Part shown: piece after piece, positions 3,262 through 33,535 of the stretch
Position numbering within the stretch: the first letter of the stretch is position 1
Layout of the letters: each line of letters opens with the position of its first letter
Assembly: GCA_034086705.1 (NCBI GenBank)
Contig: JAXDZV010000030.1
Span: forward strand, 82,933-146,932
Source of the DNA: Eubacteriales bacterium
GTDB lineage: Bacteria; Bacillota; Clostridia; Oscillospirales; CAG-272
DNA length: 64,000 bases
Direction of reading: 5' to 3'
Program-made: the position numbers and the translations under genes
The notes under the pieces: model-generated
Told to the model about the DNA's origin: nothing
Seen by the model: only the letters and a program-made list of their open reading frames with translations
Databases searched by the model: none

Positions 3262-3290
3262 TTGACAGGAGCAAGTCAGCGTGCTAAAAT
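3262..3290 (+). promoter_or_regulatory. sigma-70-type promoter of T-box unit 1
   Basis: TTGACA at 3262-3267, a 17-nt spacer, then TAAAAT at 3285-3290. Confidence 0.6.
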
Positions 3291-3297
3291 GTAGAAA

Positions 3298-3564
3298 ATC
3301 GAACAAATAATAACGGCAATGACGAAGACGGTCGAAGCGTTTTGTTTGCAGAGAGTCGGCGGTAGGTGCAAGCCGATAGCGATCCCTTCACAGACCCATC
3401 CCTTCCGAGCCGGGAGGCTGAAGTACATACAGTAGGCTCTCTCCGTGAGGCTGCGTTAAAGCACAGGGCTTGTTAGAGCTCGATGAGCGGCGTTTTTTTA
3501 CGCAATTTTGAGTGGTACCGCGGGTTACACCCGTCTCAAAGAATTTTGAGACGGGTGTTTTTTA
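3298..3564 (+). promoter_or_regulatory. T-box leader 1 (tentative specifier AUC, Ile) with terminator
   Basis: Stem I elements: GA/K-turn TGACGAAG...CTTCCGAGCC, AG bulge AGAGAG and distal loop GGTAGGTGCAA. The T-box sequence TTGAGTGGTACCGCGGG lies at about 3508-3524. The terminator ACACCCGTCTCAAA/TTTGAGACGGGTGT plus a T-run lies at 3527-3564. The triplet just 5' of the basal CUUC helix is AUC (3398-3400). Confidence 0.85.
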
Positions 3565-3598
3565 TTTGTCCGACACAAAAAGAAGGAGATTCAGCAAA

Positions 3599-5875
3599 AT
3601 GAAGCAAGATGCATGGCAGCAGCAGGAAATTGCAAAGCGGATCAAAGAGATGCGCGAGGTAGCCGGCCTCTCCGTAGAAGCAGCAGCACAGGCATGTGAT
3701 ATGGCACCACTCGAGTATCTTGCCTATGAAAGCGGACAGACAGATTTTCCGTTTTCTTTTCTGCACAAATGTGCACACATGTTTGACATTTCCATCACAG
3801 ACCTTTTGCAGGGAGACAGCCCGCGTTTGTCATCCTACACCGTCACACGGAAAAACTGTGGGCAGTTAACCGCGCATGAAGATGGCATCACGATCAGTAA
3901 TCTGGCACCAAAATTTCGTGACAAGCTTGCAGAACCATACTGGGTTCGTTACGAATACCGGGAAGAAATGCAACATCGTCCGATTGAACTGGATACACAC
4001 TCCGGGCAGGAATTTGATTTGGTTTTGCATGGTTCGCTGCGTGTTTGTGTCGGTGGGCATGAAGAAATTTTGCAAGAAGGTGACAGCATCTTCTACAATT
4101 CTTCCACGCCGCACGGCATGATCGCAATCGGTGGAGAAGACTGTCTTTTCCTTGCTGTGGTACTACCGGGCGAAAAAACAGAAGAACCCATCGTTCGCCA
4201 GAGCGTAGTGTCTGCTGCACGTACGGAGGAACTGACAATCGGCCGTTTTGTCAGCTGCACAGAAGACGAAAACGGTACCCTCACAAAACTTACTTTTCAA
4301 AATGAAAATCGCTTTAACTTTGCCTTTGACATTGTCGACGCTATCGCAGACAAAACACCAGATAAACTTGCGTTGCTGCATCTGGACCGTGAAAAGCGAG
4401 AACAACATTTTAGCTTTTCCGATATGAAAAAGCGCTCTGCGCAAGCGGCAAACTATTTTAAATCTTTGGGGATTCGACCAGGAGACCGGGTCATGCTTGT
4501 GCTGCGACGGCAAGCACAGTTTTGGCCGGTCATTCTCGGATTACATAAGCTTGGCGCAGTCGCTATCCCAGCAACAGACCAGCTATTGGAAAAAGATTAT
4601 GCCTACCGCTTTGCCGCCGGAGAAATCGGTGCAATTGTATGTACAGCATTCGGTCATGCAGCTGCAGAAGTTGACAAAGCGCAAGATGCAACAGGGCACT
4701 CCCTTCAGAAAATATTAGTTGGGGAAGGAACTGACAGCGCCGTGCGCGCCGGCTGGCACGATTTCAACACAGAATCCATTTTGTTCAGCACGCATTACGC
4801 ACGTACCGAACAAACCCCCTGTGGCGATGCCCCAATGCTGATGTTTTTCACATCCGGCACCACCGGTTATCCGAAAATTGCCCAACATTCTTACAAATAT
4901 GCGCTGGGACACTATGTAACTGCAAAATACTGGCACGGTATCCGTCCAGGCGGTTTACACCTGACGGTCTCCGATACCGGATGGGGAAAAGCACTTTGGG
5001 GCAAGCTGTATGGGCAATGGATGTGTGAAGCAGCGGTCTTCGCGTATGACTTTGACCGTTTTTCTGCCGAAGAACTACTTCCGATGTTTGCAAAATACCA
5101 CATCACTACCTTCTGTGCTCCCCCCACCATCCTGCGGATGATGATTCGCGACAATTTAAAAGATTACGATTTTTCTTCTGTGCAGCGTGCAACCGTTGCC
5201 GGGGAAGCGCTGAATCCGGAAGTATTTCGTATTTTTCTGGAACAAACCGGGCTTTCTCTGGCGGAGGGGTTCGGGCAAACGGAAACAACATTGACAGTAG
5301 CCAATCTGGTTGGGCAACCCTGCAAAATCGGCTCTATGGGACGCCCCGTTCCCGGCTGGAGCCTTGCATTATTGGACTCGGATGGCAAGCCGGTTGCTGT
5401 TGGTGAAACAGGAGAAATCGTTGTAGATGTTTCAAACAGCCGTCCCTGCGGCCTGTTTTTAGGGTATTACAACGATTCGGAAGCAACAGAACGTGTCTGT
5501 CACGACGGATTCTATCACACGGGGGATCTTGCATGGCAAGATGAAGACGGCAATTTGTTTTATGTTGGACGCGCTGACGATGTGATTAAATCTTCAGGGT
5601 ACCGCATCGGGCCATTTGAAATTGAGAGCGTAATCATGGAATTACCTTATGTTTTAGAATGCGGTGTAACTGCAGCCCCCGACCCGCTGCGTGGGCAAGT
5701 TGTTAAGGCATGTGTGGTGTTAACTGCAGGCAGACAGCCATCGGAAGAATTGAAAAAGGAAATTCAAAACTACGTCAAGGCACGCACCGCTCCCTATAAA
5801 TATCCCCGGATTGTGGAATTTCGTTCAGAACTGCCAAAAACGATCAGCGGAAAAATCAAGCGAAATGTGCTATAA
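3599..5875 (+). CDS. XRE-HTH + cupin domain fused to AMP-forming (medium/short-chain type) acyl-CoA synthetase, paralog 1
   Basis: Start moved to the ATG at 3599 (RBS AAGGAGA), because the ORF-track start at 3512 lies inside the T-box terminator. The N-terminus has an HTH (IAKRIKEMREVAGLSVEAAAQAC...) and a cupin (HSGQEFDLVLHGSL...GDSIFYNSSTPHGM). The C-terminal ANL enzyme has FTSGTTGYPK, GFGQTETT, YHTGD and a terminal SGKIKR. Confidence 0.9.
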   Translation: MKQDAWQQQEIAKRIKEMREVAGLSVEAAAQACDMAPLEYLAYESGQTDFPFSFLHKCAHMFDISITDLLQGDSPRLSSYTVTRKNCGQLTAHEDGITISNLAPKFRDKLAEPYWVRYEYREEMQHRPIELDTHSGQEFDLVLHGSLRVCVGGHEEILQEGDSIFYNSSTPHGMIAIGGEDCLFLAVVLPGEKTEEPIVRQSVVSAARTEELTIGRFVSCTEDENGTLTKLTFQNENRFNFAFDIVDAIADKTPDKLALLHLDREKREQHFSFSDMKKRSAQAANYFKSLGIRPGDRVMLVLRRQAQFWPVILGLHKLGAVAIPATDQLLEKDYAYRFAAGEIGAIVCTAFGHAAAEVDKAQDATGHSLQKILVGEGTDSAVRAGWHDFNTESILFSTHYARTEQTPCGDAPMLMFFTSGTTGYPKIAQHSYKYALGHYVTAKYWHGIRPGGLHLTVSDTGWGKALWGKLYGQWMCEAAVFAYDFDRFSAEELLPMFAKYHITTFCAPPTILRMMIRDNLKDYDFSSVQRATVAGEALNPEVFRIFLEQTGLSLAEGFGQTETTLTVANLVGQPCKIGSMGRPVPGWSLALLDSDGKPVAVGETGEIVVDVSNSRPCGLFLGYYNDSEATERVCHDGFYHTGDLAWQDEDGNLFYVGRADDVIKSSGYRIGPFEIESVIMELPYVLECGVTAAPDPLRGQVVKACVVLTAGRQPSEELKKEIQNYVKARTAPYKYPRIVEFRSELPKTISGKIKRNVL

Positions 5876-5931
5876 GATGACGCTGTTGCCTGCGAAGATT
5901 TCTCCATTTTCTCTAAAAAGTAATTTTCCAG

Positions 5932-5960
5932 TTGACAATTTAAAATCTATGTGATATACT
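5932..5960 (+). promoter_or_regulatory. sigma-70-type promoter of T-box unit 2
   Basis: TTGACA at 5932-5937, a 17-nt spacer, then TATACT at 5955-5960. Confidence 0.6.
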
Positions 5961-5966
5961 CTTTGA

Positions 5967-6258
5967 AAACTACCATAAAGGCGTTGAAGGAGAGGGCGTT
6001 TGTCTTTTCACCCCTAACAGAGAGATGGCGGTTGGTGCGAGTCATCACGGCGGTGGCGGTAAATGCTGTAGCTTCTGAGCCGGGAGAAAGAAAGCGTTTT
6101 GCGCCGTAGAATCTCCCCGTGCAGGCCACGTAAGTTGCCAAGGGCTTGTTTGAGCCCGCTAAGAGGCGTCCACAAGGCGCAATTTGAGTGGTACCGCGGG
6201 TAATCGGATGTTCGATGCTCGTCTCAAAGAGAAATCTTTGGGGCGGGCTTTGTTTTTT
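5967..6258 (+). promoter_or_regulatory. T-box leader 2 (tentative specifier GUA, Val) with terminator
   Basis: Alignable with leader 1: GAAG...AGAGAG...GGTTGGTGCGA...GUAG-CUUC-UGAGCCGGGAG. The T-box sequence TTGAGTGGTACCGCGGG lies at about 6184-6200. A 14-bp G-U-containing terminator stem (6217-6230 with 6235-6248) is followed by TTTGTTTTTT. Confidence 0.85.
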
Positions 6259-6281
6259 GCCCCGGATAGAATAAGGGAGAG

Positions 6282-8576
6282 ATGGATATGTCAACAAAAA
6301 AACTCGATCAGCAAATCATGGAAATGGCGCACCGTATTCGCGAACTGCGTCAAATTGTCGGTTTATCGACAGAGCAGATGGCAAAATTTGCAGATATTTC
6401 ACACACGGAATACCTTGCATGTGAATCCGGCACACACGATTTGACATTTGCGTTTTTGTATCGTTGTGCACAGGCACTTGGCGTTGATGTCACGGATTTA
6501 ATCGAAGGAGCTAGCCCTCGCCTGCGTTCTTATACGGTCACACGCAGCGGAAAAGGGCAAAAAATCGAACAGGCACACGGTATGACATACTACAATCTTG
6601 CCGCCGCATTTCAGAACCGTATTGCGGAGCCTTTATACGTTGTTACGCAGTACAGTGAACAAGCACTTACAAAGCCAATTGCCCTGACAACGCACGAAGG
6701 GCAGGAATGCGATATTGTTCTGCGCGGACAACTGAAAGTGCAAATCGGTTCTCATACCGAAATTCTCGGTGAGGGAGACAGCGTGTACTATGACAGCAGC
6801 ACACCACACGGTATGGTTGCTCTGGGAGGACAAGATTGTCTTTTCTATGCAATCGTGCTCAATCCGCAGCCTGATGAATCCCCTGCACAGGTGTCAACTT
6901 CGAGCACGACTGCCCCGGCAATGCAACCAACACCTTTGCCACAACAGCAACAGGTTTGGCAAAAACACATCTGTGTCACCGAAGATACACACGGTACATT
7001 GACCTCCATTTCTTTTCCAAATGCCGACACATTTAACTTTGCTTTCGATATTGTAGACCGTTTGGGCACAGAAAAGCCTGACAAACTGGCAATGTTGCAC
7101 ATTGGTAAAGATCTTACAGAACGCCGGTTTACCTTTGCCGATATCAAACGAGCATCTGCGCAAACTGCAAACTATTTCCGATCCCTTGGCATTCAGCGCG
7201 GGGATCGTGTACTGCTGATTTTGAAACGGCACTATCAGTTTTGGTTTTCTGTGCTCGCTTTGCATAAACTTGGCGCTATTGCAATTCCCGCAACCAATCA
7301 ACTCAAGGAGCATGACATCACATACCGCCTGGAAAAAGCCGGCATCAGCGCCGTCATTTGTACGGCTGATGACGAAATCCCACAGCAAATGGAGCGTGCT
7401 GCAGCAGCGTATCCGTCTCTTTGCAAAATTCTGGTCGGTGCAAGCCGCGCAGGATGGCACAATTTTGACGCCGAATATCCTTTGTTCAGCGGGCGTTTTC
7501 CGCGACCTGCAGATGCTCCGTGCGGTGAAGACCCGATGCTGATGTATTTCACCTCCGGTACCACCGGCAATCCGAAAGTTGCTATGCATTGTTATAAATA
7601 TCCTTTAGGACATTTTGTGACGGCGCGCTATTGGCACAATGTCAATCCTGAGGGGCTACATTTGAGTATTGCCGATACCGGCTGGGCAAAAGCTGCATGG
7701 GGAAAGCTATATGGGCAATGGCTATGTGAGGCAGCCGTGTTTGTTTATGACTTTGACCGCTTTGACGCCTCGGTCATTTTGCCAATGTTTGCAAAGTACC
7801 ACATTACCACTTTTTGTGCCCCGCCAACGATTCTGCGTATGATGGTAAAACAAGACCTTTCCCGCTACGATCTGTCCAGTGTGCAGCATATGAGTACAGC
7901 AGGAGAAGCATTAAACCCGGAAGTCTTCCGACAATTTGAAGCTGCTACAGGGCTGCAAATTATGGAAGGCTTCGGACAGTCTGAAACCACAGTTGCACTT
8001 GCCAATCTCCGCGGTACAAAAATCCGGCCGGGGTCAATGGGCAAGCCGGTTGCGCTGTACGATATCGACCTTGTAGATGATGCCGGGAATTCTGTTCCCT
8101 GTGGCGAAGTAGGAGAAATTGTCATCCGAGTTGCAAACGGCGCGCCTTGTGGTTTGTTTCGCGGATATTACCGTGACCCGGAAAAAACCGCAGAATGCTG
8201 GCATGACGGATTGTACCACACAGGCGATACCGCATGGCGCGATGAAGAAGGATATTTCTGGTACGTCGGCAGAACAGATGATGTTATTAAATCCTCCGGC
8301 TATCGCATCGGTCCCTTCGAAATTGAAAACATCATCATGGAGCTTCCATACGTACTGGAATGCGGCGTAACCGCTGTGCCTGATGCACTGCGCGGACAAA
8401 TTGTGAAAGCCTGCATCGTATTAACAGCGGACCGCTCTCCCAGTGAAGCACTGGCAAAGGAAATACAAAATTATGTCAAGGCGCACACTGCGCCGTATAA
8501 ATATCCACGGCTGGTAGAATTCCGTTCGGAACTGCCGAAAACCGCCAGCGGAAAGATTATGAGAAATAAATTATGA
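6282..8576 (+). CDS. XRE-HTH + cupin domain fused to AMP-forming acyl-CoA synthetase, paralog 2
   Basis: Same architecture as 3599..5875, with long identical runs such as LPMFAKYHITTFCAPPTILRMM, DDVIKSSGYRIGPFEIE and ELPYVLECGVTA. A P/Q/S/T-rich linker separates the cupin from the enzyme. The start could be the ATG at 6288 rather than 6282, since RBS GGGAGAG abuts 6282. Confidence 0.9.
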   Translation: MDMSTKKLDQQIMEMAHRIRELRQIVGLSTEQMAKFADISHTEYLACESGTHDLTFAFLYRCAQALGVDVTDLIEGASPRLRSYTVTRSGKGQKIEQAHGMTYYNLAAAFQNRIAEPLYVVTQYSEQALTKPIALTTHEGQECDIVLRGQLKVQIGSHTEILGEGDSVYYDSSTPHGMVALGGQDCLFYAIVLNPQPDESPAQVSTSSTTAPAMQPTPLPQQQQVWQKHICVTEDTHGTLTSISFPNADTFNFAFDIVDRLGTEKPDKLAMLHIGKDLTERRFTFADIKRASAQTANYFRSLGIQRGDRVLLILKRHYQFWFSVLALHKLGAIAIPATNQLKEHDITYRLEKAGISAVICTADDEIPQQMERAAAAYPSLCKILVGASRAGWHNFDAEYPLFSGRFPRPADAPCGEDPMLMYFTSGTTGNPKVAMHCYKYPLGHFVTARYWHNVNPEGLHLSIADTGWAKAAWGKLYGQWLCEAAVFVYDFDRFDASVILPMFAKYHITTFCAPPTILRMMVKQDLSRYDLSSVQHMSTAGEALNPEVFRQFEAATGLQIMEGFGQSETTVALANLRGTKIRPGSMGKPVALYDIDLVDDAGNSVPCGEVGEIVIRVANGAPCGLFRGYYRDPEKTAECWHDGLYHTGDTAWRDEEGYFWYVGRTDDVIKSSGYRIGPFEIENIIMELPYVLECGVTAVPDALRGQIVKACIVLTADRSPSEALAKEIQNYVKAHTAPYKYPRLVEFRSELPKTASGKIMRNKL

Positions 8577-9271
8577 TTTCAACACAAAAACGTATCAGTC
8601 TTTTTTGCGGACATTACGGAAGCGGCAAAACCAACATCGCCATCAACTATGCATGTATGTTACGTGCAGCAGGGCTTGCGGTCAGCGTAGCAGATATGGA
8701 TATTGTCAATCCCTACTTCCGCACGAGCGATAGCCGTGAAATGCTCCAACGCGCCGGAATTGGGCTAGTCTGCTCCCCATATGCAGGATCAAATGTTGAT
8801 CTTGCTGCGCTTCCAAAAGAGCTATATGATTTGGTGCGTTGCCGTGACGTATATGCCGTGATGGACGTGGGCGGAGACGAACGCGGTGCGCTGGCATTGG
8901 GTCGTTATGTTCCGGAAATATTGGAAGAAGATAATTATGCAATGTACTTTGTTGTCAATTTTGCGCGCCCTTTAACACGCACCGCAGACCAGGCCTTCGA
9001 TATTCTGCGTGAAATTGAGCAAGCTGCGGGTATGCGCTGTACCGCGATTGTGCATAATACCAATCTTGCCACGCAAACTACGCCACAGACCTTGCTGCAC
9101 TACATCGATGCACTGCAACAGCTGCGCCAAAAAAGCGGCCTTCCTGTTGCCTTTTGGTCAGCTGAGCACACATTAATACCGGCCTTGGCCGATGCACTTG
9201 CGGCACATACGGACAAAGCATTATACCACGAGCTTTTTCCCCTGCATTTGCAGGCAAAAATAACGGATTGA
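8573..9271 (+). CDS. P-loop NTPase of unknown role (MinD/ParA/CooC-like size, Walker A GHYGSGKT)
   Basis: 232 aa, with an ATGA overlap onto the stop of the upstream synthetase. The Walker A motif sits near the N-terminus, and DMDIVNPYF and VMDVGGDERG are Walker B/switch-like segments. Confidence 0.7.
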   Translation: MISTQKRISLFCGHYGSGKTNIAINYACMLRAAGLAVSVADMDIVNPYFRTSDSREMLQRAGIGLVCSPYAGSNVDLAALPKELYDLVRCRDVYAVMDVGGDERGALALGRYVPEILEEDNYAMYFVVNFARPLTRTADQAFDILREIEQAAGMRCTAIVHNTNLATQTTPQTLLHYIDALQQLRQKSGLPVAFWSAEHTLIPALADALAAHTDKALYHELFPLHLQAKITD

Positions 9272-9285
9272 AAGGACGAAAAACC

Positions 9286-9492
9286 ATGGCAAAACTAACA
9301 TTTGACACCGAGCGATGCAAGGGCTGCGGGCTATGCATTCACGCCTGTCCAAAACACCTACTCGCCTTGGAAAAGAAGCACATCAACAAAAAAGGACACA
9401 CTCCCGTCTGCATGACAGATGTAACACAGTGCATTGGCTGTGCTTTCTGTGCCATTATGTGTCCCGATTGCGTCATTACCGTGGAAAAATAA
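9286..9492 (+). CDS. 2x[4Fe-4S] ferredoxin-type delta subunit of 2-oxoacid:ferredoxin oxidoreductase
   Basis: Two CxxCxxCxxxCP motifs (CKGCGLCIHACP, CIGCAFCAIMCP). Start placed at the ATG at 9286, downstream of AAAGGA; the ORF track begins at a TTG at 9268. Confidence 0.85.
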   Translation: MAKLTFDTERCKGCGLCIHACPKHLLALEKKHINKKGHTPVCMTDVTQCIGCAFCAIMCPDCVITVEK

Positions 9493-9504
9493 GGAGGGTA
9501 GAAG

Positions 9505-10584
9505 ATGAGCGAAAAAGTATTGATGAAAGGAAACGAAGCCATTGCAGAAGCTGCTATTATGGCAGGCTGCCGCCATTACTTCGGGTATCCAATTACACCA
9601 CAAACTGAAATCGCCGCATATATGGCAAAACGTATGCCGCAGATCGGCGGGTGTTTTTTACAAGCAGAGAGCGAAATTGCAGCTATCAACATGGTATACG
9701 GCGTTTCCTCAGCGGGGTATCGCGTTATGACCTCTTCTTCCAGCCCTGGGATTGCATTGAAAAGCGAAGGCCTATCCTATCTGGCCGGTGCTGACCTGCC
9801 AGCACTGGTGGTCAATGTACAGCGCGGCGGACCGGGCCTTGGAGGAATTCAGCCCTCGCAATCAGATTATTTTCAGGCAACCAAAGCCGGCGGACACGGT
9901 GATTTTCGAATGATCGTACTTGCTCCTGCTTCCGTTCAGGAAATGGCGAATTTAACTTTGTGCGGCTTTGCACTGGCAGATCAATATCGTATGACAGCAA
10001 TGATTCTCGCCGATGGTACAATGGGCCAAATGATGGAGCCGGTGAGCTTCGAGCAACCCCCTCTGCAGGAAGTGGAAAAACCCTGGGCAGTCCGTGGTAC
10101 TGAAAATATGCGTCCGCATAATATCATCAATTCTCTGTATCTGGTGCCGGAAGAGCTGGAACGAAAAAATGTGGAACGCTTTGCGCGCTATGCGGAAATT
10201 GAAAAGAAGGAAGCTCGCTGTGAAGAATACCACGTAGAAGACGCAGACATCATCGTCGTTGGGTTCGGCATTGCCGCACGTGTTGCCAAAAGCGCCGTAG
10301 ACGCGGCGCGGGCTCAGGGAATCCGCGTTGGGTTGATTCGCCCGATCACGCTTTGGCCATTTCCCAAAGAGGCGCTGTACCGTGCCGCTACACACGCTAA
10401 ACGTTTCATTTCAGTTGAGCTTTCTATGGGACAAATGGTGGAAGATATTTCACTTGCTATTCACTGCAAGGCGCCCGTGGACCTTTGCTTCCGTACGGGG
10501 GGGATGATTCCGTCTCCTGAGCAAGTTCTCAACGCCATTACAGATGCAAAAACAAAAATTGACACAGAAAGGACGCCTTGCTGA
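9505..10584 (+). CDS. vorB: 2-oxoacid:ferredoxin oxidoreductase alpha subunit (VorB-like, 3-methyl-2-oxobutanoate type)
   Basis: 359 aa. The N-terminus MKGNEAIAEAAIMAGCRHYFGYPITPQTEI is typical of the short POR/VOR/KOR alpha subunits, and the gene sits in a four-subunit operon. Confidence 0.85.
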   Translation: MSEKVLMKGNEAIAEAAIMAGCRHYFGYPITPQTEIAAYMAKRMPQIGGCFLQAESEIAAINMVYGVSSAGYRVMTSSSSPGIALKSEGLSYLAGADLPALVVNVQRGGPGLGGIQPSQSDYFQATKAGGHGDFRMIVLAPASVQEMANLTLCGFALADQYRMTAMILADGTMGQMMEPVSFEQPPLQEVEKPWAVRGTENMRPHNIINSLYLVPEELERKNVERFARYAEIEKKEARCEEYHVEDADIIVVGFGIAARVAKSAVDAARAQGIRVGLIRPITLWPFPKEALYRAATHAKRFISVELSMGQMVEDISLAIHCKAPVDLCFRTGGMIPSPEQVLNAITDAKTKIDTERTPC

Positions 10585-10600
10585 AGGCCGGAACATATGT

Positions 10601-11350
10601 ATGATCGTATTTGAAAAACCGAAGGTGTTAACCGACAAGCCGCTGCATTATTGCCCCGGCTGTACACATGGAATTGTTCATCGTCTGGTTGCGCAGGCGA
10701 TTGAAGAGCTTTCCATCGAAGGAAAAACAATTGGCGTTGTGCCGGTTGGCTGTTCTGTTATGGCATATGACTATTTCAAAACCGATATGGTAGAGGCCTC
10801 GCATGGGCGGGCGCCTGCCGTTGCAACCGGTCTGCGCCGTGCGTTACCCGACCGTGTGATTTTTACATACCAAGGCGACGGCGATCTCGCCTCCATCGGC
10901 ACTGCAGAAACAGTACATGCCGCCGCACGCAATGAGAATATCACCGTTATTTTTATTAATAACGCCATCTACGGTATGACAGGCGGCCAAATGGCTCCGA
11001 CTTCCCTTCCCGGCCAGGTAACGCAAACTTCCCCCTATGGCAGAGATGTCAAACAATGTGGTTATCCTGTGAAAATCTGCGAAATGCTGGCGCAACTGGA
11101 GGGCCCGGCTTATCTGGAGCGTGTTGCCGTTAACAACGTCAAACACGTGTTGGCAGCAAAAAAAGCGATTCGCCGTGCATTTGAAAACCAACTTGCAGGT
11201 AAAGGCTTTTCGCTGATCGAAGTGCTTTCCTCCTGCCCCACGAACTGGGGAATGACACCGGAAAAAGCCTTGGACTGGATAGAAGAAAAAATGATTCCGT
11301 ATTATCCGCTCGGCGTGTTTAAGGACAGAGACAAGGAGGCAGTTCAATGA
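10601..11350 (+). CDS. 2-oxoacid:ferredoxin oxidoreductase beta subunit (TPP-binding)
   Basis: HYCPGCTHG cluster-ligand motif and TPP motif GDGDLASIG...NNAIYGMTGGQ. Start trimmed to the ATG at 10601, after the alpha-subunit stop at 10584. Confidence 0.85.
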   Translation: MIVFEKPKVLTDKPLHYCPGCTHGIVHRLVAQAIEELSIEGKTIGVVPVGCSVMAYDYFKTDMVEASHGRAPAVATGLRRALPDRVIFTYQGDGDLASIGTAETVHAAARNENITVIFINNAIYGMTGGQMAPTSLPGQVTQTSPYGRDVKQCGYPVKICEMLAQLEGPAYLERVAVNNVKHVLAAKKAIRRAFENQLAGKGFSLIEVLSSCPTNWGMTPEKALDWIEEKMIPYYPLGVFKDRDKEAVQ

Positions 11351-11886
11351 GCACTACCAAGATTCTGATTGCCGGATTCGGTGGGCAAGGCGTACTGTTT
11401 GCCGGCAAATATCTCGCATATCAGGGATTGCTGGAAGGCAGACAGCTTTCCTGGCTCCCTTCATACGGGCCCGAAATGCGCGGCGGAACTGCAAATTGCA
11501 GTGTCATTCTTTCTGACGAACCAGTCGGCTCACCGATTGTCACAGAACCGGACGTTCTGATCGTCATGAACCTCCCCTCCTATGATAAATATGAAAGCAG
11601 TGTAGTTTCCGGCGGCCTTATCCTGCTGGACAGCTCGTTGATTGACCGACCCACCGCGCGTTCTGATGTGCGCACCGTCCGTGTACCAGCCACAGCAATG
11701 GCCCGCGAACAGGGCATTCCAACACTTGCCAATATGATCTTGCTCGGCCAGTTTTTTGCTTGCAGCGGCGCCGCTGATTTTGCCAATACCGATGCGGTAT
11801 TGAAAAAAGTAATCTCACAAAAACATATGGATCTCTTTGCGCTGAATCGCAAAGCGCTGGAGCTCGGATATCATTATCAGGCGTAA
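11347..11886 (+). CDS. 2-oxoacid:ferredoxin oxidoreductase gamma subunit
   Basis: 179 aa with an ATGA overlap onto the beta subunit. [14 protein letters not shown] is the typical gamma-subunit N-terminus. Confidence 0.85.
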
Positions 11887-11899
11887 AGGAGAAAACGAC

Positions 11900-12976
11900 A
11901 TGGAAATTCGCTATATTGCCCCCACAGAGCTTCGTGCGCATCCGGATGAAAGTGCGCTTGGCTTCGGCAAATATTTTACCGACCATATGCTCACCGTAGA
12001 GTATGATCGAGAAAATGGTTGGCACGACGCCTGCATTGCGCCATTCGGTCCAATCGCACTGCATCCGGCCTCAACCGTTCTGCATTACGGCTCTGAAGTT
12101 TTTGAAGGGTTGAAAGCTTATCGCGCGGCAGACGGTTCTGTCCGCCTATTTCGCCCCATTGAAAATGTACGACGCATGAACCAATCAGCAGAGCGCTTGG
12201 GGCTGCCACAAATGGACGAACAGGAAATGCTCTCTCTCATCCTTGAGATTGTTCGCAAAGATGAAGATTGGGTACCGCATTTACCAGGTACCTCCCTGTA
12301 CATCCGCCCGTTTTTATTTGGGAATGATGCAAATCTTGGTGTCCATTCCATTCATCGTGCCACCTTTGTCATCATTCTCTCACCGGTCGGCGCCTACTAT
12401 GCAGAGGGGATCAATCCTGTGAAAATCCGCATTGAAACAGAAGATGTCCGTGCCGTGCGCGGCGGCACCGGCTATGCAAAGTGCGGAGGAAACTATGCTG
12501 CTTCCGTGCGCGCCGGAGAAAAAGCAGAAAAAGAGGGCTTTACCCAGGTATTATGGCTGGACGGCGTTCATCGCAAGTATATTGAAGAGGTGGGCGCAAT
12601 GAACGTTATGTTTAAAATCAACGGCACCATCATCACCCCGCAGCTCACCGGATCCGTTTTGCCCGGAATCACACGAAAATCCTGTATTACGCTGTTGCAC
12701 GATTGGGGGTATTCCGTCGAAGAACGACTGCTCAGCGCCGAAGAGTTGTTTGCTGCAGCGGAAAGCGGTGCTTTGGAAGAAGCATTCGGCACTGGGACGG
12801 CTGCCGTTGTCTCTCCCATCGGTCTTTTGCGCATGAATGAACGCTCATTCACCGTCAACCACGGCAAAATTGGGCCGCTAACGCAGCGTTTATATGACAC
12901 TCTGACAGGAATCCAATGGGGTACATGCCCCGATCCGCACAATTGGATCTGCCCGCTGCGGAATACACAAGCATAA
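11900..12976 (+). CDS. ilvE: branched-chain amino acid aminotransferase (fold type IV, long form)
   Basis: 358 aa with FGKYFTDHM, YGSEVFEGLKAY, LYIRPF and GGTGYAKCGGNYAAS, which are characteristic of BCAT. Confidence 0.9.
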   Translation: MEIRYIAPTELRAHPDESALGFGKYFTDHMLTVEYDRENGWHDACIAPFGPIALHPASTVLHYGSEVFEGLKAYRAADGSVRLFRPIENVRRMNQSAERLGLPQMDEQEMLSLILEIVRKDEDWVPHLPGTSLYIRPFLFGNDANLGVHSIHRATFVIILSPVGAYYAEGINPVKIRIETEDVRAVRGGTGYAKCGGNYAASVRAGEKAEKEGFTQVLWLDGVHRKYIEEVGAMNVMFKINGTIITPQLTGSVLPGITRKSCITLLHDWGYSVEERLLSAEELFAAAESGALEEAFGTGTAAVVSPIGLLRMNERSFTVNHGKIGPLTQRLYDTLTGIQWGTCPDPHNWICPLRNTQA

Positions 12977-13121
12977 TCATTCTTCGCAAAATGGGTGATA
13001 AATAAGCAAGGCGATCTTTTTGCTTTGCGTCTTTCCCTTCACACCTTGCCCATAGCATGCTCCAACACCACATGCCAAAATTTTCAATATGCATCCTGTA
13101 TTTTCCTTTATATTACAAAGG

Positions 13122-13160
13122 GCAGGCCGATCTGCTATTAAGCAGACCGGCCTGTCTTTT
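13122..13160 (+). terminator. intrinsic terminator at the end of the ilvE operon
   Basis: GCAGGCCGATCTGC ... GCAGACCGGCCTG hairpin (one A/C mismatch) followed by TCTTTTGCTG, between convergent gene ends. Confidence 0.55.
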
Positions 13161-13199
13161 GCTGCTACATTATTTTCCTTTTTCAAAGGAATGTTGCAC

Positions 13200-15503
13200 T
13201 CAGGAGTCACTCTGCGTTTCTGCACGGAGGTGCTCCAGCATTTCTTTTGCATCTACAAGCAGCTCCCTTGCCGCCTCCGCTGATGCCGCATCCGCAATTA
13301 AACGCAGCGCAGCCCGCCGCTCCGGTCGCAACAGAACCCAACCGCTGTCCCGACGAATCCGCAATACATCCGGTATATGCCATACTTCGTCTGGATGTGA
13401 GGGGGTGTGCAATTTTCCAAGTGCCCGCATCAAAGCAGCCTTTTCTGCCACAGGCATCAAAACAGTCATACGTCGTCTGACATGCTGCGGCTGTGCCGCA
13501 CATAGCGCAGACAGCGAAGTGCCTGTCTGTGAAAGGAGTGTCACCAGTGTCGCAGCCCCAAAAATCGGGTTGGAAATCGGTAAAACAGATGCATATAATT
13601 TGCGCGCTGCAATCGACGGATCATCCGGCCCCGGACAATGCGTAAATCGCTCAACAGTAAATCCCGCCTCTTCTCCCAACGACTCGAAAAAAGCAGGCGC
13701 TGCCGCAGGCAGCCCGACACGTGTTAGCTGCCATGTTCCAGCACAATAACGCAGCAGCGTACCGGCAATTGCCCATGTGTCAAACTCTTTTCCGTTTTCA
13801 AACGCGATCAACTCTCCCCATTCGTTCAAGCACAGTTGCAAAGCGGCTTCCCGATGCGGTAGCTTTCCGTATGCCGCAAAATAGGGGCCAAGTATGGCTT
13901 TGGCTGCAACACCGGCAAAGCAGAACGGATACGTTTGTGTGGTTGTACTGAAAAAAGGCAATAGAGCACGCCGCAGCAAATATCGCACATCTGTCGATGG
14001 CAAAACCGTACACGGCTCTGCAACACTGCCCCCTTGCGAGAGCCCTTGCTCTAAAAGGCGCTCCGTTGCGCGCACAGGGTACAATCCGTTTTCATCTAAG
14101 AGTACCGCTGTACAGCGTCTGCCGTCAAACCGGATAAACAAAGTCAACGCACAGCCGTAATGCAATGCAGCAAACGAGCTTTCCGGGCGTGAGAGCACAC
14201 CGAAATCAACCGTTTTACCGCCGGCAGCCGCACATGCGGCTGCTGCCAACGACACAGTCGCTGCGCTGACAGCATGCCCGTCACTGCTGAAGCCCACCGG
14301 CCCGGGCAATCCTGCCGCTGCAAACGCAAGCGCCGCTCCGAATCGCGCACAAAACACCGTATCCGGCTTTTCCTGCGCAAAGAGTTCTATCTCACTGTGG
14401 GAAAATCGATCCTGCACAACACGAAACCCGTCAAATACCGCGTCTGTTTCTTCCTGTGTTGCAGCCGGGGCAGACATTGTCTGCGCGGCACATGTTGTCC
14501 CCGCAGGTAAGTGCAGCCCTCGCTGCAGACAAATCCCGGGGGCAACCGTCACACCGCTGCCAAGCACGCATCCGGGCGTCACAAAGGCACGTGCACCGAT
14601 CCAAGCTCCCTGCGCAATCATAGCACCCTCAACATGCGCATGCGCACCAACTGTAACACTATCCAGCAAAATACTTTGCTGCAACTGTGCCGTTGGATCC
14701 AGGCGGCAACCGTCTGAAATAATACAACCATGTTGTAAGACACCCTCCCGCGGCTGAATCCCCTCAATCTCGCCACGTGCCAGCTGAAAATTGCAGGCAA
14801 AATACGCATCCAATGTTCCGATATCACACCAGTACCCGCGCATCTCTTCGCCACGTAGCAAAATACCGTCTCGCAATGCCGCAGGAAAAATATCTTTACC
14901 AAAATCACTCGGTCTGTCTTGCGGAATGCGCGCAATAAACCGTGGTGTGAGCAAATACATACCGGTGTTGACCGTATCCGGTGCTGCACTGAAGGCGCTC
15001 GGCTTTTCGGCAAAAGCACGTATACTGCCATCCGGTGCACACAGAACAACACCAAGCGAACTGACGTCTGCTGTGTGGCTTAGGAGCAAGGTTGCCTCTG
15101 CTCCCCCCGCGCGATGCCGCGCCAATGCCGCAGAAAGGTCAAAATTGCACAGCGCGTCTGCACTGATAACCAAAACTTCCCGCTGCGAAAAATCACCTAC
15201 CGACATTAACGCCGCACGCACACCGCCTGCTGTCCCCAGAGGTGTCTGCTCGACAGCATACCGTAGACGGATCCCCTCTGCCTGCTCCCCATAATACTGA
15301 CGAATTTGCTCCGCACGATAACATAAACTGACAATCGCCTCCGTGTATCCATGCCGGGCGAGCAACCTTAAAACATGCGTCATCGCCGGCTCTGCAGCAA
15401 TTGGCACCAAAGGCTTTGGAAGTGTATCTGTCAATGGGCGAAGCCGCCTGCCTTCTCCTCCCGCCATGATGATCGGAATCGGGCGATTTATTGTTTCGTT
15501 CAT
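13200..15503 (-). CDS. sugar-phosphate nucleotidyltransferase (NTP-transferase + left-handed beta-helix) with a long PGM/PMM-like C-terminal region
   Basis: IIMAGGEGRRLRPLTDTLPKPLVPI is the nucleotidyltransferase signature and is followed by hexapeptide-like repeats. The C-terminal ~400 aa resembles a phosphohexomutase scaffold, but I see no SHNP-type active-site loop. Start set at the ATG at 15503 (AAAGGAA about 11 nt upstream); the ORF track starts at 15542. Confidence 0.6.
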   Translation of the reverse strand: MNETINRPIPIIMAGGEGRRLRPLTDTLPKPLVPIAAEPAMTHVLRLLARHGYTEAIVSLCYRAEQIRQYYGEQAEGIRLRYAVEQTPLGTAGGVRAALMSVGDFSQREVLVISADALCNFDLSAALARHRAGGAEATLLLSHTADVSSLGVVLCAPDGSIRAFAEKPSAFSAAPDTVNTGMYLLTPRFIARIPQDRPSDFGKDIFPAALRDGILLRGEEMRGYWCDIGTLDAYFACNFQLARGEIEGIQPREGVLQHGCIISDGCRLDPTAQLQQSILLDSVTVGAHAHVEGAMIAQGAWIGARAFVTPGCVLGSGVTVAPGICLQRGLHLPAGTTCAAQTMSAPAATQEETDAVFDGFRVVQDRFSHSEIELFAQEKPDTVFCARFGAALAFAAAGLPGPVGFSSDGHAVSAATVSLAAAACAAAGGKTVDFGVLSRPESSFAALHYGCALTLFIRFDGRRCTAVLLDENGLYPVRATERLLEQGLSQGGSVAEPCTVLPSTDVRYLLRRALLPFFSTTTQTYPFCFAGVAAKAILGPYFAAYGKLPHREAALQLCLNEWGELIAFENGKEFDTWAIAGTLLRYCAGTWQLTRVGLPAAAPAFFESLGEEAGFTVERFTHCPGPDDPSIAARKLYASVLPISNPIFGAATLVTLLSQTGTSLSALCAAQPQHVRRRMTVLMPVAEKAALMRALGKLHTPSHPDEVWHIPDVLRIRRDSGWVLLRPERRAALRLIADAASAEAARELLVDAKEMLEHLRAETQSDS

Positions 15504-15806
15504 AAAAATCATATTCCTTTCTGCATGCGCGTATGGGGCCATGTTCGGCTGTTCGCACAGGTCCTATGCGCTTGCGTGCAGCATTCTGAACCTACTTGCC
15601 ATAAATGCAGCAGGTGGAGCTTTTTTCAAATATAAAAAATGCTCCGAAAACAGTTTTTGCCGCCGTATTTCAGAATATACGCTCCAAAATTCTCAAAAAA
15701 TTCACATCTATTTGTAAGAAACTATTCCATTTTTCAAGTATCCGTGGTAAAATAAAATGTTGTTGTATGAATTGATAATAATTTTGACAGGAGTTGCCCA
15801 AAAGCT

Positions 15807-17718: not shown

Positions 17719-18007
17719 ATAAAATCAATAAACAAATGCGCAGATGGAATTACGTGTTTCCACAAACATGCTCCAGAGAGGCAGCGGTAGGTGCGAGCTG
17801 CAGCATGGGGGAGAAACGGTCTCATTCCGGAGCAGGATCTCGGAAGGGCGCTACGGTAAGTGTTGCCATAGTATGAGATCCCGGAGGCCCCGTTACCATG
17901 GCTGTAGGATTGAAAGATCCTGAATAAGTGACCGTCTATGGACGGTAAGCAGGGTGGTACCGCGAATTTGTTTCGTCCCTGAGGTCTTTGACCTCAGGGA
18001 CTTTTTT
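17719..18007 (+). promoter_or_regulatory. T-box leader 3 (specifier CUC, Leu) with terminator
   Basis: AGAGAG bulge, distal loop GGTAGGTGCGA, and specifier context GAAACGGU-CUC-A-UUCC-GGAGCA pairing with a 5' GGAA. The T-box sequence AGGGTGGTACCGCG lies at 17951-17964. The terminator GTCCCTGAGGT/ACCTCAGGGAC plus TTTTTT lies at 17975-18007. Confidence 0.85.
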
Positions 18008-18037: not shown

Positions 18038-19444
18038 ATGAAAAACATGCAGATATGCCAGATACAGGATGAAACGCTGTGTTGCCAGCAGCAGACACAA
18101 AAGGCCCTTTCTTTCCGTGCCCGTATGGAAATTATCGGAAAACTGATTGCTGCCGGCGTGAATCTTATTGCATTGCCGATACCTGAAAATGAAAAAGCAG
18201 ATGCCCTTTTGTTAGATACGGTGGCACCGCTTGGCGAAAATGTTTGTTATGTCATTTCCGTTTCCTCCGTAGCACAAGCCCAACGCGCAGCTGCCGTGCT
18301 TATGCACGCAGCCCACGCCCGGCTATGTGTAGAACTTCCTCTTTCTGCCATCGGTATGGAGTATTCTTTACACAAAAAAGAAAAAGACATGATCGGTTTT
18401 GTCACAGATTTAATCTCTTCCTGCCGTACTCTGTGCAATCAAGTCAGCTTTTGCGCCGCAGACGCCTTTCGGGCAGATGTTACTTTTCTGAAAAGTGCTG
18501 TACAGGCTGCCGTATCTGCAGGTGCTGATACTGTAATTCTCAAAGACAATGCCGGGATCGCTCTGCCGTGGACAACGCAAACGCTCTTCCAATCTGTTGC
18601 TCAGCAGTTGCCCGCATCTGTCTGTCTCGGCGCCGCTTTTTCAAATACTGCTTTCATGGCTTGCGCCAACAGCGCGTGTGCTGTCCGCAGCGGCGCTGTG
18701 ATACTGCTCAGCGCCATTGGCAGCAATACCTTACCGGATACTGCAGCGCTTGGGTACACTATGCAGAGTCTTTCGCATACAGAAAAATATACAACTGCTC
18801 TCGTTACAACAGAGCTTTCTCGCCTGTGCGATGCGGTGCGCGCACAGCTTTGCGGGGTAGAACGTACCACGCAGCAACAACGTACCCCCGAACAGTTTCG
18901 TTTGACCAAAGATGCCAGCGCCACAGAAGTCGCACAGGCAGCTCGCACGCTCGGATATGATCTTTGCGCAGAAGACGCCGATCGCCTGTATGAAGCATTT
19001 CGCCGCGTTTCGGAGAAAAAAACGGTTGACAGCCGCGAACTGGACGCATTGATCGCATCGGAAACAATGCAGGTGCGTCCCACCTATACATTGGAGAAAT
19101 ATCTTGTAAACGCAGGCAACGTGATGACTCCGGCCGCGCAAATCACATTGCGTCGCGGCGAAGACCGGTTACAGGGAATTTCGATGGGAGACGGCCCGAT
19201 TGATGCAGCATTTCTAACCATTGAACAAATAATTGGATGCCATTTCGAATTAGATGCATTCGAAATTCAAGCGGTAACGGAGGGCCGCGGCGCAATGGGG
19301 TCCGCCGTTGTCAGACTCCGGGCAGATGGAAAACTATATAGCGGTATGGGCAGTTCAACGGACATCATCGGCGCATCTATCCGCGCTTACTTAAACGCCA
19401 TCAACAAAATCGTGTATGATGAAATGCAGTCACAAACACTCTAA
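18038..19444 (+). CDS. 2-isopropylmalate synthase (LeuA)-like protein with degenerate active site and intact LeuA-dimer/regulatory C-terminal domain
   Basis: Start at the ATG at 18038 (RBS AAGGAG), because the ORF-track start lies in the T-box terminator. The N-terminal motif reads DETLCCQQQ where LeuA/CimA have DTTLRDGEQ. The HxH metal site is replaced by AAFSNTAF. The C-terminus GDGPIDAAF...AVTEGRGAMGSAVVRLRADGKLYSGMGSSTDIIGASIRAYLNAINK matches the LeuA allosteric domain. Confidence 0.75.
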   Translation: MKNMQICQIQDETLCCQQQTQKALSFRARMEIIGKLIAAGVNLIALPIPENEKADALLLDTVAPLGENVCYVISVSSVAQAQRAAAVLMHAAHARLCVELPLSAIGMEYSLHKKEKDMIGFVTDLISSCRTLCNQVSFCAADAFRADVTFLKSAVQAAVSAGADTVILKDNAGIALPWTTQTLFQSVAQQLPASVCLGAAFSNTAFMACANSACAVRSGAVILLSAIGSNTLPDTAALGYTMQSLSHTEKYTTALVTTELSRLCDAVRAQLCGVERTTQQQRTPEQFRLTKDASATEVAQAARTLGYDLCAEDADRLYEAFRRVSEKKTVDSRELDALIASETMQVRPTYTLEKYLVNAGNVMTPAAQITLRRGEDRLQGISMGDGPIDAAFLTIEQIIGCHFELDAFEIQAVTEGRGAMGSAVVRLRADGKLYSGMGSSTDIIGASIRAYLNAINKIVYDEMQSQTL

Positions 19445-22044: not shown

Positions 22045-22929
22045 GTGCGCATGACAAGATATAACATTTTAAATCTTGCCGCCGGTCAAGGACTTGCCGG
22101 TAAGGAAAAAACCCCCCAAGGCATTGATTATTATACAAAATGCATCGGAGATGCACGGCTGTATGTAAAAGACCGCTGTTTGGCACATGCGGATGATCTT
22201 TGCTTTTGTGTGTATGGCGGAGACGGCACTATCAATGAAGTTGTCAGCGGGATTTTAGACGCAAATGCAGCAGATCGTGCCAGCGTTGGTGTCGTCCCGT
22301 ACGGTACGGGGAATGATTTTGCAAGAATTTTACAGCATATGCAGCAAGGGGATTCCTTGTGGTCCGATGTGATCCACTGGAATGATGCTTATGCCGTCAA
22401 TATGTTGAACATCGGCTTTGACTGTAGTGTAGTTGAAAAAACTGCACACATGAAAACGCTGCCGCTGATCAGCGGAAGTTTTGCATATATTTTAGGGGTC
22501 GCCGATGTACTGTTTCACAAAATCTCCCGCTCTCTGTACATCCGCTATACAGATGCAAATGGGAAGCAAGGCAGTTATGACGGGCAGGTGCTACTATGTG
22601 CCGTAGCCAATGCACCGTATTGCGGCGGCGGCTTTTGTGCTGCGCCGGTCGCGCAATATGATGATGGTCTTTTAGATCTCATGATTATCCGAAAGGTTTC
22701 GCGCGCACGGTTTTTGTCGTTGGTTTCCGCATATCGCAGCGGTACCCACGTCAATTCCGATGGCGATGTAACTCGACGCTTTGCAGACATTATTTCCTAT
22801 CACCGTTGTAAGTCCATCCGCATAGAAGGCATGGAACATGTCTGCGCAGACGGTGAAATATTTCCATGTACTGCAGCCGACATTGGCGTTTTTCCGCATG
22901 CCATACGCTTCTTGCGTGTGCATGCATAG
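22045..22929 (+). CDS. diacylglycerol/lipid kinase family protein (YegS/BmrU-like)
   Basis: 294 aa with the GGDGTINEV motif and GTGNDFAR. Confidence 0.75.
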   Translation: MRMTRYNILNLAAGQGLAGKEKTPQGIDYYTKCIGDARLYVKDRCLAHADDLCFCVYGGDGTINEVVSGILDANAADRASVGVVPYGTGNDFARILQHMQQGDSLWSDVIHWNDAYAVNMLNIGFDCSVVEKTAHMKTLPLISGSFAYILGVADVLFHKISRSLYIRYTDANGKQGSYDGQVLLCAVANAPYCGGGFCAAPVAQYDDGLLDLMIIRKVSRARFLSLVSAYRSGTHVNSDGDVTRRFADIISYHRCKSIRIEGMEHVCADGEIFPCTAADIGVFPHAIRFLRVHA

Positions 22930-22957
22930 ATTTGCAACAAATATAGGAGGAAATAGA

Positions 22958-33239: not shown

Positions 33240-33290
33240 TGTTCCGTTCCTTCCTAACAAAACTTTTATTGAAGAATTTTTTCTCCCGAT

Positions 33291-33535
33291 AAAAAACGCC
33301 CTCTGCCACACGCAGAGGGCGTTACAAACGCGGTACCACCTCAGTTCGTGTTCGCCAACACGAACACCTCTTCTCCCGATATAACGGTCGAACCGGCGCA
33401 GCCTACACAAAAAACTTTTTCTCTTCGGTGCGCAGCTCCCACGGTGTATTTCCAAAGTGCTCTGCCTCCGCCTTGCATCTTCCGGCGTCTTTCTGCACAC
33501 ATAACAGCTTTGTACTTCTCCGCGATCTTTGCTTT
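33291..33535 (-). promoter_or_regulatory. T-box leader 4 (specifier UAC, Tyr) with terminator
   Basis: Read on the minus strand: GGTGGTACCGCG (33329-33340), the terminator AACGCCCTCTGCGTGTGGCAGAGGGCGTTTTTT (33291-33323), and the specifier context GGAAA-UAC-A (UAC = 33446-33448). Confidence 0.9.

Follow-up and report, generated by a model that had tools for sequence, protein, structure and literature searches.

Transcriptional T-box leaders permit read-through into the genes behind them when the cognate tRNA is uncharged. In the rumen, valine, isoleucine and leucine are reportedly made by reductive carboxylation, as Allison, Bryant, Robinson and Peel are said to have established between 1962 and 1971 by labelling and with cell extracts. 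Labelling work cited in PMC7356843 showed isobutyrate, 2-methylbutyrate and isovalerate to be reductively carboxylated in rumen bacteria including ruminococci. Two described acyl-CoA ligases handle such acids: MbcS, whose substrates are 2-methylbutyrate and isobutyrate, and MacsMa, which prefers 2-methylbutyrate and completes its reaction only with this acid. Here, we analysed a 64-kb stretch of DNA from an Eubacteriales bacterium of the Oscillospirales (assembly GCA_034086705.1, contig JAXDZV010000030.1, positions 82,933 to 146,932), hereafter the window. It carries a cluster in which two T-box leaders precede two acyl-CoA ligase genes, acsA and acsB, and the second unit continues into genes for a P-loop nucleoside triphosphatase (NTPase), a four-subunit 2-ketoisovalerate:ferredoxin oxidoreductase (VOR) and the branched-chain aminotransferase IlvE. 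We consider it likely that this cluster is a tRNA-gated salvage system, in which branched short-chain fatty acids supplied from outside the cell would be turned into isoleucine, valine and probably leucine. The initial annotation of this DNA had read the cluster as a route from branched acid to acyl-CoA, 2-oxoacid and amino acid. That reading is supported in silico by the specifier codons of the leaders, by ligase clades that match those specifiers and by a residue of the ligase pocket.

The same annotation had claimed two T-box leaders, each with promoter, stem I, T-box and terminator. Performing covariance-model searches with the Rfam T-box model RF00230, we find that both leaders match the whole model (positions 1-219), leader 1 with 90.3 bits (E 1.2e-19) and leader 2 with 70.2 bits (E 1.9e-14), and the claim of two complete leaders is borne out. 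The covariance result has two sides: the matches are significant over the entire model, and both scores lie under the gathering score of 93 bits, which is an operational annotation threshold and no structural feature. Both leaders were seen in E-value mode with permissive filters. Of the four T-box leaders in the window, two reach the gathering score (17732-17983, plus strand; 33538-33312, minus strand). The promoters and terminator stems assigned to leaders 1 and 2 (Table 1) were the two best sites in the promoter scan and the terminator scan of the region. The motif GGTACCGCG is found at 3514-3522 in leader 1 and at 6190-6198 in leader 2, and one base longer, as UGGUACCGCG at 3513-3522 and 6189-6198, it forms the UGGN bulge of the antiterminator. 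In leader 1, the 5′ arm of the terminator overlaps the 3′ arm of the antiterminator, and in both leaders the 5′ arm of the terminator is common to the two structures. CAGAGAG and GGUNGGUG are also found in both. Using the Rfam alignment and our own parser, we recovered the stem I elements, namely the K-turn base, the specifier loop, the AG bulge and the distal loop; the AGUA/GAA S-turn of the specifier loop is reduced in both leaders.

To compare the leaders across genomes, we used a scan of species-representative genomes that gave at least 600 matches, from which 80 loci were retained. Of the 123 homologous ligase genes in the window and these 80 loci, 117 have a T-box core motif 70-120 nt ahead of them. 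A strict T-box pattern, GGNGGNACC, missed leaders, and this count is that of a relaxed pattern. Aligning 31 Ile-type leaders, we find compensatory changes at 31 of the 51 predicted pairs, those of stem I included. Among 94 orthologous leaders, 88 have a sigma-70-like promoter of the form TTGACW-N16-18-TANNNT at a constant distance. The upstream motif and the covariation together establish that leaders 1 and 2 are not chance matches. Since the leaders of this Ile/Val subclass fall under the Rfam cutoff, standard annotation misses them. Their specifier loop is without the usual AGUA/GAA S-turn. In six loci (L006, L020, L023, L058, L062 and L069), the gathering threshold catches four leaders of the leucine module described below and one of Ile/Val type (L006).

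The specifier was taken as the three bases before the last unpaired base of the specifier loop, the rule also used by TBDB. We validated the rule on the tyrS leader of the window, where it recovers UAC (Tyr); the lower stem of that leader has five pairs. This Tyr T-box (33538-33312, minus strand) precedes tyrS (32025-33500, minus strand) and served as the positive control. Each parse was compared with its context, and reliance was placed on conservation. Leader 1 reads AUC (Ile) and leader 2 reads GUA (Val). The first ligase gene of the tandem has the specifier ATC in all 44 parsed leaders, and ATC is likewise invariant in the alignment of Ile-type leaders (alignment A3). For the ligase gene at the head of the VOR-IlvE operon, about 37 leaders gave GTA 31 times and GTC 3 times. 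The Val specifier thus varies only synonymously, with neighbouring loop bases varying freely. Because the two specifiers differ and stay conserved, the leaders are, judged from their sequences, not redundant: acsA would be read via tRNA-Ile and the long operon via tRNA-Val. The terminator scan found none between the acsA stop and the second promoter (window 5875-6248), so Ile-induced transcripts should reach the Val leader and still stop at the Val terminator.

The two ligases are 58% identical to each other. Both match AMP-binding (PF00501, 199 bits for AcsA and 221 bits for AcsB) and AMP-binding_C (PF13193, 76 and 73 bits), and the core catalytic motifs of the ANL superfamily are invariant across 12 homologues. 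Clustering 113 full-length ligases by identity, we obtained one group with 44 ATC leaders and a single GTA, and a second with 43 GTN leaders and no ATC. The two ligase clades therefore coincide with the leader specifier. Eleven alignment positions split the clades at 85% or more; ten of these lie in an N-terminal regulator-like module and one in the catalytic domain. In the catalytic domain, the clades are told apart by one residue alone, which is Gly in AcsA (Gly463) and Ala in AcsB (Ala469); each form occurs in 100% of its own clade.

This position aligns with Val310 of E. coli Acs. Val310, Thr311, Val386 and Trp414 of Acs are reported to line the acetate pocket (Gulick 2003; Ingram-Smith 2006). 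In the alignment to E. coli Acs, the position of Trp414 is Gly in both AcsA and AcsB. The clade split suggests that a Gly pocket goes with the C5 acid 2-methylbutyrate (Ile) and an Ala pocket with the C4 acid isobutyrate (Val). AcsA is thus a predicted 2-methylbutyrate-CoA ligase and AcsB a predicted isobutyrate-CoA ligase. The closest solved homologue of AcsB is MacsMa (PDB 3ETC; 622 bits, E 1.5e-185). The site equivalent to Gly463 is Gly in MacsMa and Ala in a 4-hydroxybutyrate (C4)-CoA ligase, an independent check that fits the prediction of Gly with C5 and Ala with C4.

Both ligases carry a complete XRE-type helix-turn-helix (HTH) and cupin module ahead of their AMP-binding domains. The discriminating residues of this module fall in AcsA 8-114 and AcsB 12-118 (window 3620-3940 and 6315-6635) and include E/A98, I/M101, I/Y103 and Y/L118. 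They hint at a paralogue-specific ligand or DNA site (operator), and the module may, at a guess, provide a second, ligand-binding regulatory input. One may ask whether such proteins are primarily transcription factors, with the adenylating domain as a sensor and a metabolic output other than branched-chain amino acids. The completeness of the XRE-cupin module on each ligase speaks for this, as does the crowding of ten of the eleven discriminating residues in it. Nevertheless, the catalytic motifs of the ligase are all conserved across the family, the pocket residue covaries with the specifier, and the downstream genes are plain VOR and IlvE. Exact half-site matching across 94 promoter regions revealed no conserved palindrome that could serve the HTH as an operator. 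We regard a primarily regulatory role as very improbable. In Bacteroidales, the cupin protein and the ligase come from two adjoining genes, as seen in P. distasonis (L087, NZ_OY725757.1, 7956-10178) and B. finegoldii (L088, NZ_OY725909.1, 7361-9578), and this ligase shares 46-53% identity with AcsB; T-boxes, for which these loci were not searched, are presumably absent there, as expected for the phylum. Since the two parts are separate but adjoining, the partnership is older than the fusion.

The oxidoreductase behind acsB has all four subunits. Its alpha subunit passes the VorB cutoff, while the beta, gamma and delta subunits stay under their own NCBIfam equivalog cutoffs. The delta subunit has two CxxCxxCxxxCP motifs and matches delta families of 2-oxoacid:ferredoxin oxidoreductases (OFOR). 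Judged by its family name, its partners in the operon and its control by a T-box, the enzyme would be specific for branched 2-oxoacids and acyl-CoAs and would run in the reductive direction. The synteny ligase, ligase, P-loop, vorD-A-B-G, ilvE is conserved. P-loop-vorDABG follows 32 of the 42 Val-type ligases with enough downstream sequence (76%), 25 of the 29 such clusters whose sequence extends far enough to judge contain ilvE, and an Ile-type ligase precedes 34 of the 53 Val-type ligases with enough upstream sequence. In L001, L002, L031, L064 and L078, ilvE lies between the Val-type ligase and the P-loop gene and not at the operon end. The 80 loci come from gut and rumen metagenome-assembled genomes of Oscillospiraceae, Acutalibacteraceae, Christensenellaceae, Faecousia, Saccharofermentans and relatives, that is, of Oscillospirales and Christensenellales. 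The fused ligase family as a whole has more than 8000 homologues, nearly all named just 'AMP-binding protein'.

The same enzymes could in principle run the other way, in a Stickland-type oxidation from amino acid to 2-oxoacid (IlvE), to acyl-CoA (VOR) and to the free acid. VOR-type enzymes are oxidative in amino-acid fermenters, and VOR and IlvE are both reversible. An energy-yielding catabolic route would end in a phosphotransacylase and a kinase, or in an ADP-forming synthetase, and the cluster holds none of these. The ligases are AMP-forming, and such enzymes spend two ATP equivalents per free acid taken up and do not serve energy conservation from acyl-CoA. The T-box, moreover, switches genes on when the amino acid is scarce. 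We rejected the catabolic reading on the polarity of the switch and the type of ligase, and find it hardly credible. T-box polarity, AMP-forming ligases, an operon that includes IlvE and a separate ligase for each amino acid all argue for an anabolic route.

A third leader with the specifier CUC (Leu) lies 4.7 kb downstream of the Ile/Val cluster, beyond the coordinates set by the initial annotation, ahead of a LeuA-like gene and a gene fusing a TIM barrel to an acyl-CoA ligase. Of the 12 orthologous leaders of such Leu modules that could be parsed, 11 read CTC, and in four other loci orthologous leaders pass the gathering score. In about 30 of the 80 loci, the module and the Ile/Val cluster are neighbours, with the module placed divergently upstream or else downstream. 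We considered the frame at 18038-19444 as a 2-isopropylmalate synthase and rejected this, since it scores 211 bits against a LeuA cutoff of 532 and has lost its key motifs: compared with solved LeuA structures, RDGEQ has become CCQQQ and the HxH metal ligands are gone (FxN; HCH to AFS). The orthologue in L023, only 38% identical, shows the same motif loss. The protein is thus, as read from its motifs, catalytically dead, and it keeps the LeuA_dimer regulatory domain. The TIM-ligase fusion is a candidate isovalerate-CoA ligase. In the simplest reading, the Leu module is probably an isovalerate-activating leucine arm that shares VOR and IlvE with the other two. Directly after the Leu-arm ligase, at 22045-23830 (plus strand), lie two further genes, one for a YegS/DAGK-like lipid kinase and one for another AP_endonuc_2 TIM barrel that stands alone; in L023, their place is taken by an Amidohydro_2 gene.

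Taken together, the proposed salvage would proceed as follows. Each leader would be transcribed from its own sigma-70 promoter. With the cognate tRNA charged, the 14-bp terminator would form and transcription would stop. When uncharged, tRNA-Ile(GAU) would pair with AUC in leader 1, or tRNA-Val(UAC) with GUA in leader 2, and the free CCA end of the tRNA would pair with the UGGU bulge, stabilising the antiterminator and allowing the genes to be read. As T-boxes act on uncharged tRNA, the cluster would be expressed when isoleucine, valine or leucine runs short. AcsA, with its Gly pocket, would then activate 2-methylbutyrate and AcsB, with its Ala pocket, isobutyrate, each converting ATP to AMP and pyrophosphate. 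Using reduced ferredoxin and CO2, the four-subunit VorB-type oxidoreductase would carboxylate the acyl-CoA reductively to the 2-oxoacid, which IlvE would transaminate to the amino acid. The Leu (CUC) T-box would control the third ligase, and isovaleryl-CoA would enter the same VOR and IlvE.

Several points weigh against this salvage reading. Leaders 1 and 2 score under the Rfam gathering score, as do most of their orthologues. VOR and IlvE stand behind the Val leader only, an arrangement that does not account for their induction under Ile-only or Leu-only starvation. VOR is reversible, and the direction of flux is not readable from sequence. The placement of Val310 in the acyl pocket depends on what these two earlier studies (Gulick 2003; Ingram-Smith 2006) are reported to have found. 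In 10 of the 42 Val-type ligases there is no adjoining VOR, and the Bacteroidales pairs of cupin and ligase adjoin proline and arginine genes (proC, proBA, arg), with no VOR nearby. Finally, MbcS (NF047394) is the best NCBIfam family of both ligases, at 403.6 bits for AcsA and 426.7 bits for AcsB, far under the equivalog cutoff of 850 bits. We therefore rejected filing the ligases as MbcS, their scores being half of that cutoff, and kept them as related ligases that probably use the same acids.

The family match and the ligases that stand apart from VOR bear on another explanation, in which the ligases mainly supply branched acyl-CoA primers for the branched-chain fatty acids of the membrane, being switched on when branched-chain amino acids are low, and VOR and IlvE play a minor or oxidative part. 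Primer supply is the documented role of MbcS in S. aureus, and both the 10 of 42 Val-type ligases and the Bacteroidales homologues without an adjoining VOR agree with it. Against it, T-boxes read tRNA charging, i.e. the demand of protein synthesis, and the Val-type ligase is accompanied by VOR and IlvE in 76% of the informative loci. There is no fatty-acid synthesis gene in the cluster, and one ligase per amino acid with matching specifiers tracks amino acids and not lipid classes. We judge a mainly lipid-directed role unlikely. Primer use and amino acid salvage are not mutually exclusive, and parallel use is possible. Primer supply would account for neither the VOR-IlvE operon nor the logic of the tRNA switch.

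The P-loop protein between acsB and vorD has more than 6000 homologues, none of them named, and gives only weak CbiA/ParA matches in Pfam. Wherever vorD was found among the related loci, the P-loop gene lay upstream of it. Aligning the family (alignment A2), we find the invariant motifs GHYGSGKTN, DxDxVNPYFR, DxGGDxRGA and NNTN, and no conserved Cys. A sequence search of the PDB with the protein gave no significant match. An AlphaFold2 model (predicted local distance difference test score, pLDDT, 88.6) finds its nearest folds in the SRP/FtsY GTPases and ATPase-type HypB at TM-scores of about 0.5-0.58, which places the modelled protein in the SIMIBI class and no closer. Two roles were rejected for lack of a conserved cysteine: that of a NifH-like ATP-driven electron donor and that of an Mrp/NBP35 Fe-S carrier. 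The protein may be a VOR assembly or activation factor, which is a guess.

A more far-reaching extension of the salvage reading, which we put forward tentatively and with considerable doubt, is a three-armed regulon with an arm for every branched-chain amino acid. Here, each ligase would be doubly gated, by its T-box and by an attached ligand-sensing module, and the SIMIBI NTPase, of a hitherto uncharacterised family, would be required for VOR assembly or for reductive drive. The modules would be the HTH-cupin on the Ile and Val ligases, and the leucine-binding domain of the dead LeuA with the TIM barrel on the Leu ligase; they would report the availability of precursor or product. The whole would then be a dedicated machine, widespread in gut and rumen Clostridia, and not an opportunistic reversal of a catabolic enzyme.

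The features of the locus are collected in Table 1. Performing Pfam and NCBIfam searches, we find the genes in the order given by the initial annotation: two paralogous ligases, the P-loop protein, the delta, alpha, beta and gamma subunits of an OFOR, and IlvE. Reading the sequence likewise bears out its ATGA overlaps at 8573 (acsB/P-loop) and 11347 (beta/gamma), and where it had ended the unit, near 13122, there is a hairpin with a folding z-score of -5.2. The delta ferredoxin lies in the frame of the open reading frame at 9268, not of that at 9315. Gene calls of other assemblies start acsB at 6288, and the 249-aa start of the beta subunit is called in four other assemblies. The convergent gene at 13200-15542 (minus strand) encodes a protein of 780 aa in which a sugar-1-phosphate nucleotidyltransferase that has a hexapeptide-repeat region is fused to a part resembling phosphoglucomutase/phosphomannomutase. 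No tRNA genes were found in the 64-kb window, and its remainder holds housekeeping genes only.

Table 1. Features of the proposed salvage cluster and the leucine module, with positions in the window
Feature	Position	Strand	Description
Promoter of leader 1, sigma-70-type	3262-3290	+	TTGACA-17-TAAAAT, extended TG, score 11/12
T-box leader 1, Ile	3310-3541	+	Reads AUC (3398-3400); T-box bulge GGUACCGCG (3514-3522)
Intrinsic terminator of leader 1	3527-3565	+	14-bp stem 3527-3558, then T run; -25.3 kcal/mol, z = -4.6
acsA	3599-5875	+	758 aa; HTH_XRE + Cupin_2 + AMP-binding + AMP-binding_C; Ile-type, Gly463
Promoter of leader 2, sigma-70-type	5932-5960	+	TTGACA-17-TATACT, extended TG, score 11/12
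T-box leader 2, Val	5975-6229	+	Reads GUA (6068-6070); T-box bulge (6190-6198)
Intrinsic terminator of leader 2	6217-6258	+	14-bp stem 6217-6248, then TTTGTTTTTT
acsB	6282-8576	+	764 aa (762 aa from start 6288); same domains as acsA; Val-type, Ala469
P-loop NTPase, SIMIBI-class by fold search	8573-9271	+	Walker A GHYGSGKT, DxGGDxRG
VOR delta	9286-9492	+	68-aa 2x[4Fe-4S] ferredoxin; translation with CKGCGLCIHACP and CIGCAFCAIMCP
VOR alpha, VorB family	9505-10584	+	NF005507, 534.8 bits against cutoff 399; Pfam POR_N, PFOR_II
VOR beta, thiamine pyrophosphate (TPP)-binding	10601-11350	+	TPP_enzyme_C, OFOR beta families
VOR gamma	11347-11886	+	PF01558 POR
IlvE, type II branched-chain aminotransferase	11900-12976	+	NF009897, 461.9 bits against 307; TIGR01123, 389 against 250
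Operon-end hairpin	13116-13161		-34.9 kcal/mol, z = -5.2; between convergent ilvE and the 13200-15542 (-) gene
T-box leader 3, Leu	17732-17983	+	RF00230, 109.2 bits (above gathering score); specifier CUC at 17821-17823
LeuA-like pseudo-enzyme	18038-19444	+	HMGL-like + LeuA_dimer; catalytic and metal motifs lost
TIM-barrel/ligase fusion	19468-21969	+	833 aa; xylose-isomerase-like TIM barrel (AP_endonuc_2) + AMP-forming acyl-CoA ligase; NF009233, 648 bits

Branched short-chain fatty acids are growth factors of fibre-degrading rumen bacteria, are fed to dairy cattle and serve as markers of protein fermentation in the human gut. The cluster gives candidate genes for the pathway of the 1960s labelling work: three amino-acid-specific ligases, VOR, an aminotransferase and an accessory NTPase. 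The T-box specifiers provide a built-in readout of the amino acid that each ligase serves. If the salvage reading is true, predictions of auxotrophy and cross-feeding would change for a large fraction of the Clostridia in gut and rumen, the T-box regulon would extend to a ferredoxin-dependent, CO2-fixing salvage route, and a single residue, Gly or Ala in the pocket, would give a rule for ligase specificity.

T-box control, AMP-forming ligases for branched acids, VOR and the reductive carboxylation route are each already known singly. The initial annotation had held that no such system was established, and within the coverage of our search we likewise found no description: neither the full-text literature searched nor the T-box surveys describe the conserved assembly of the cluster, the pairing of leader and ligase, the fused regulators, the dead LeuA or the accessory NTPase. 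Acid-CoA ligase, VOR and P-loop genes are absent from the T-box regulon surveys and supplements covered (Vitreschak 2008 and Gutierrez-Preciado 2009 fall outside this coverage).

Comparing the parts with their nearest relatives, we note first that BirA, like AcsA and AcsB, is an adenylate-forming enzyme with an N-terminal helix-turn-helix. This is a resemblance of possible working and not of membership, as the folds and families are others: here, an XRE-cupin module with putative DNA binding is joined to an ANL ligase, and the parts are separate genes in Bacteroidales. MacsMa of M. acetivorans (3ETC) shares with AcsA the Gly at both pocket positions, but it is archaeal, with an unsettled role in physiology, and has neither HTH-cupin nor T-box. 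MbcS of S. aureus is likewise an AMP-forming ligase for 2-methylbutyrate and isobutyrate and the best NCBIfam family; it differs in that it serves lipid primers, carries no regulator fusion and is not partnered by VOR or IlvE, and the ligases of the window reach half its cutoff.

The four-subunit VOR of archaea and anaerobes has the same alpha, beta, gamma and delta subunits, with the alpha subunit here passing VorB. In contrast to the known enzyme, the present one stands under a Val T-box, has a ligase, an aminotransferase and a dedicated SIMIBI NTPase as its operon partners, and would work in the anabolic direction. The pathway of Allison and co-workers has the same activation, ferredoxin-dependent carboxylation and transamination in the same habitat, and the carrier taxa overlap in part (ruminococci and relatives). 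For that pathway, no gene assignment was found in the literature searched, whereas here a specific, regulated gene cluster is proposed. The T-box operons of B. subtilis and other Firmicutes, ilv-leu and those of aminoacyl-tRNA synthetases, share with the present leaders the stem I specifier, the UGGN antiterminator bulge and the competing terminator, as well as the canonical specifiers AUC (Ile), GUA (Val) and CUC (Leu), and they too respond to an uncharged tRNA by raising the supply of its amino acid. Unlike those leaders, the Ile and Val leaders described here lie under the Rfam cutoff. The known operons govern the de novo acetolactate and isopropylmalate pathway, synthetases and transporters, whereas the genes under control in this cluster are salvage ligases, a ferredoxin oxidoreductase and a P-loop NTPase.

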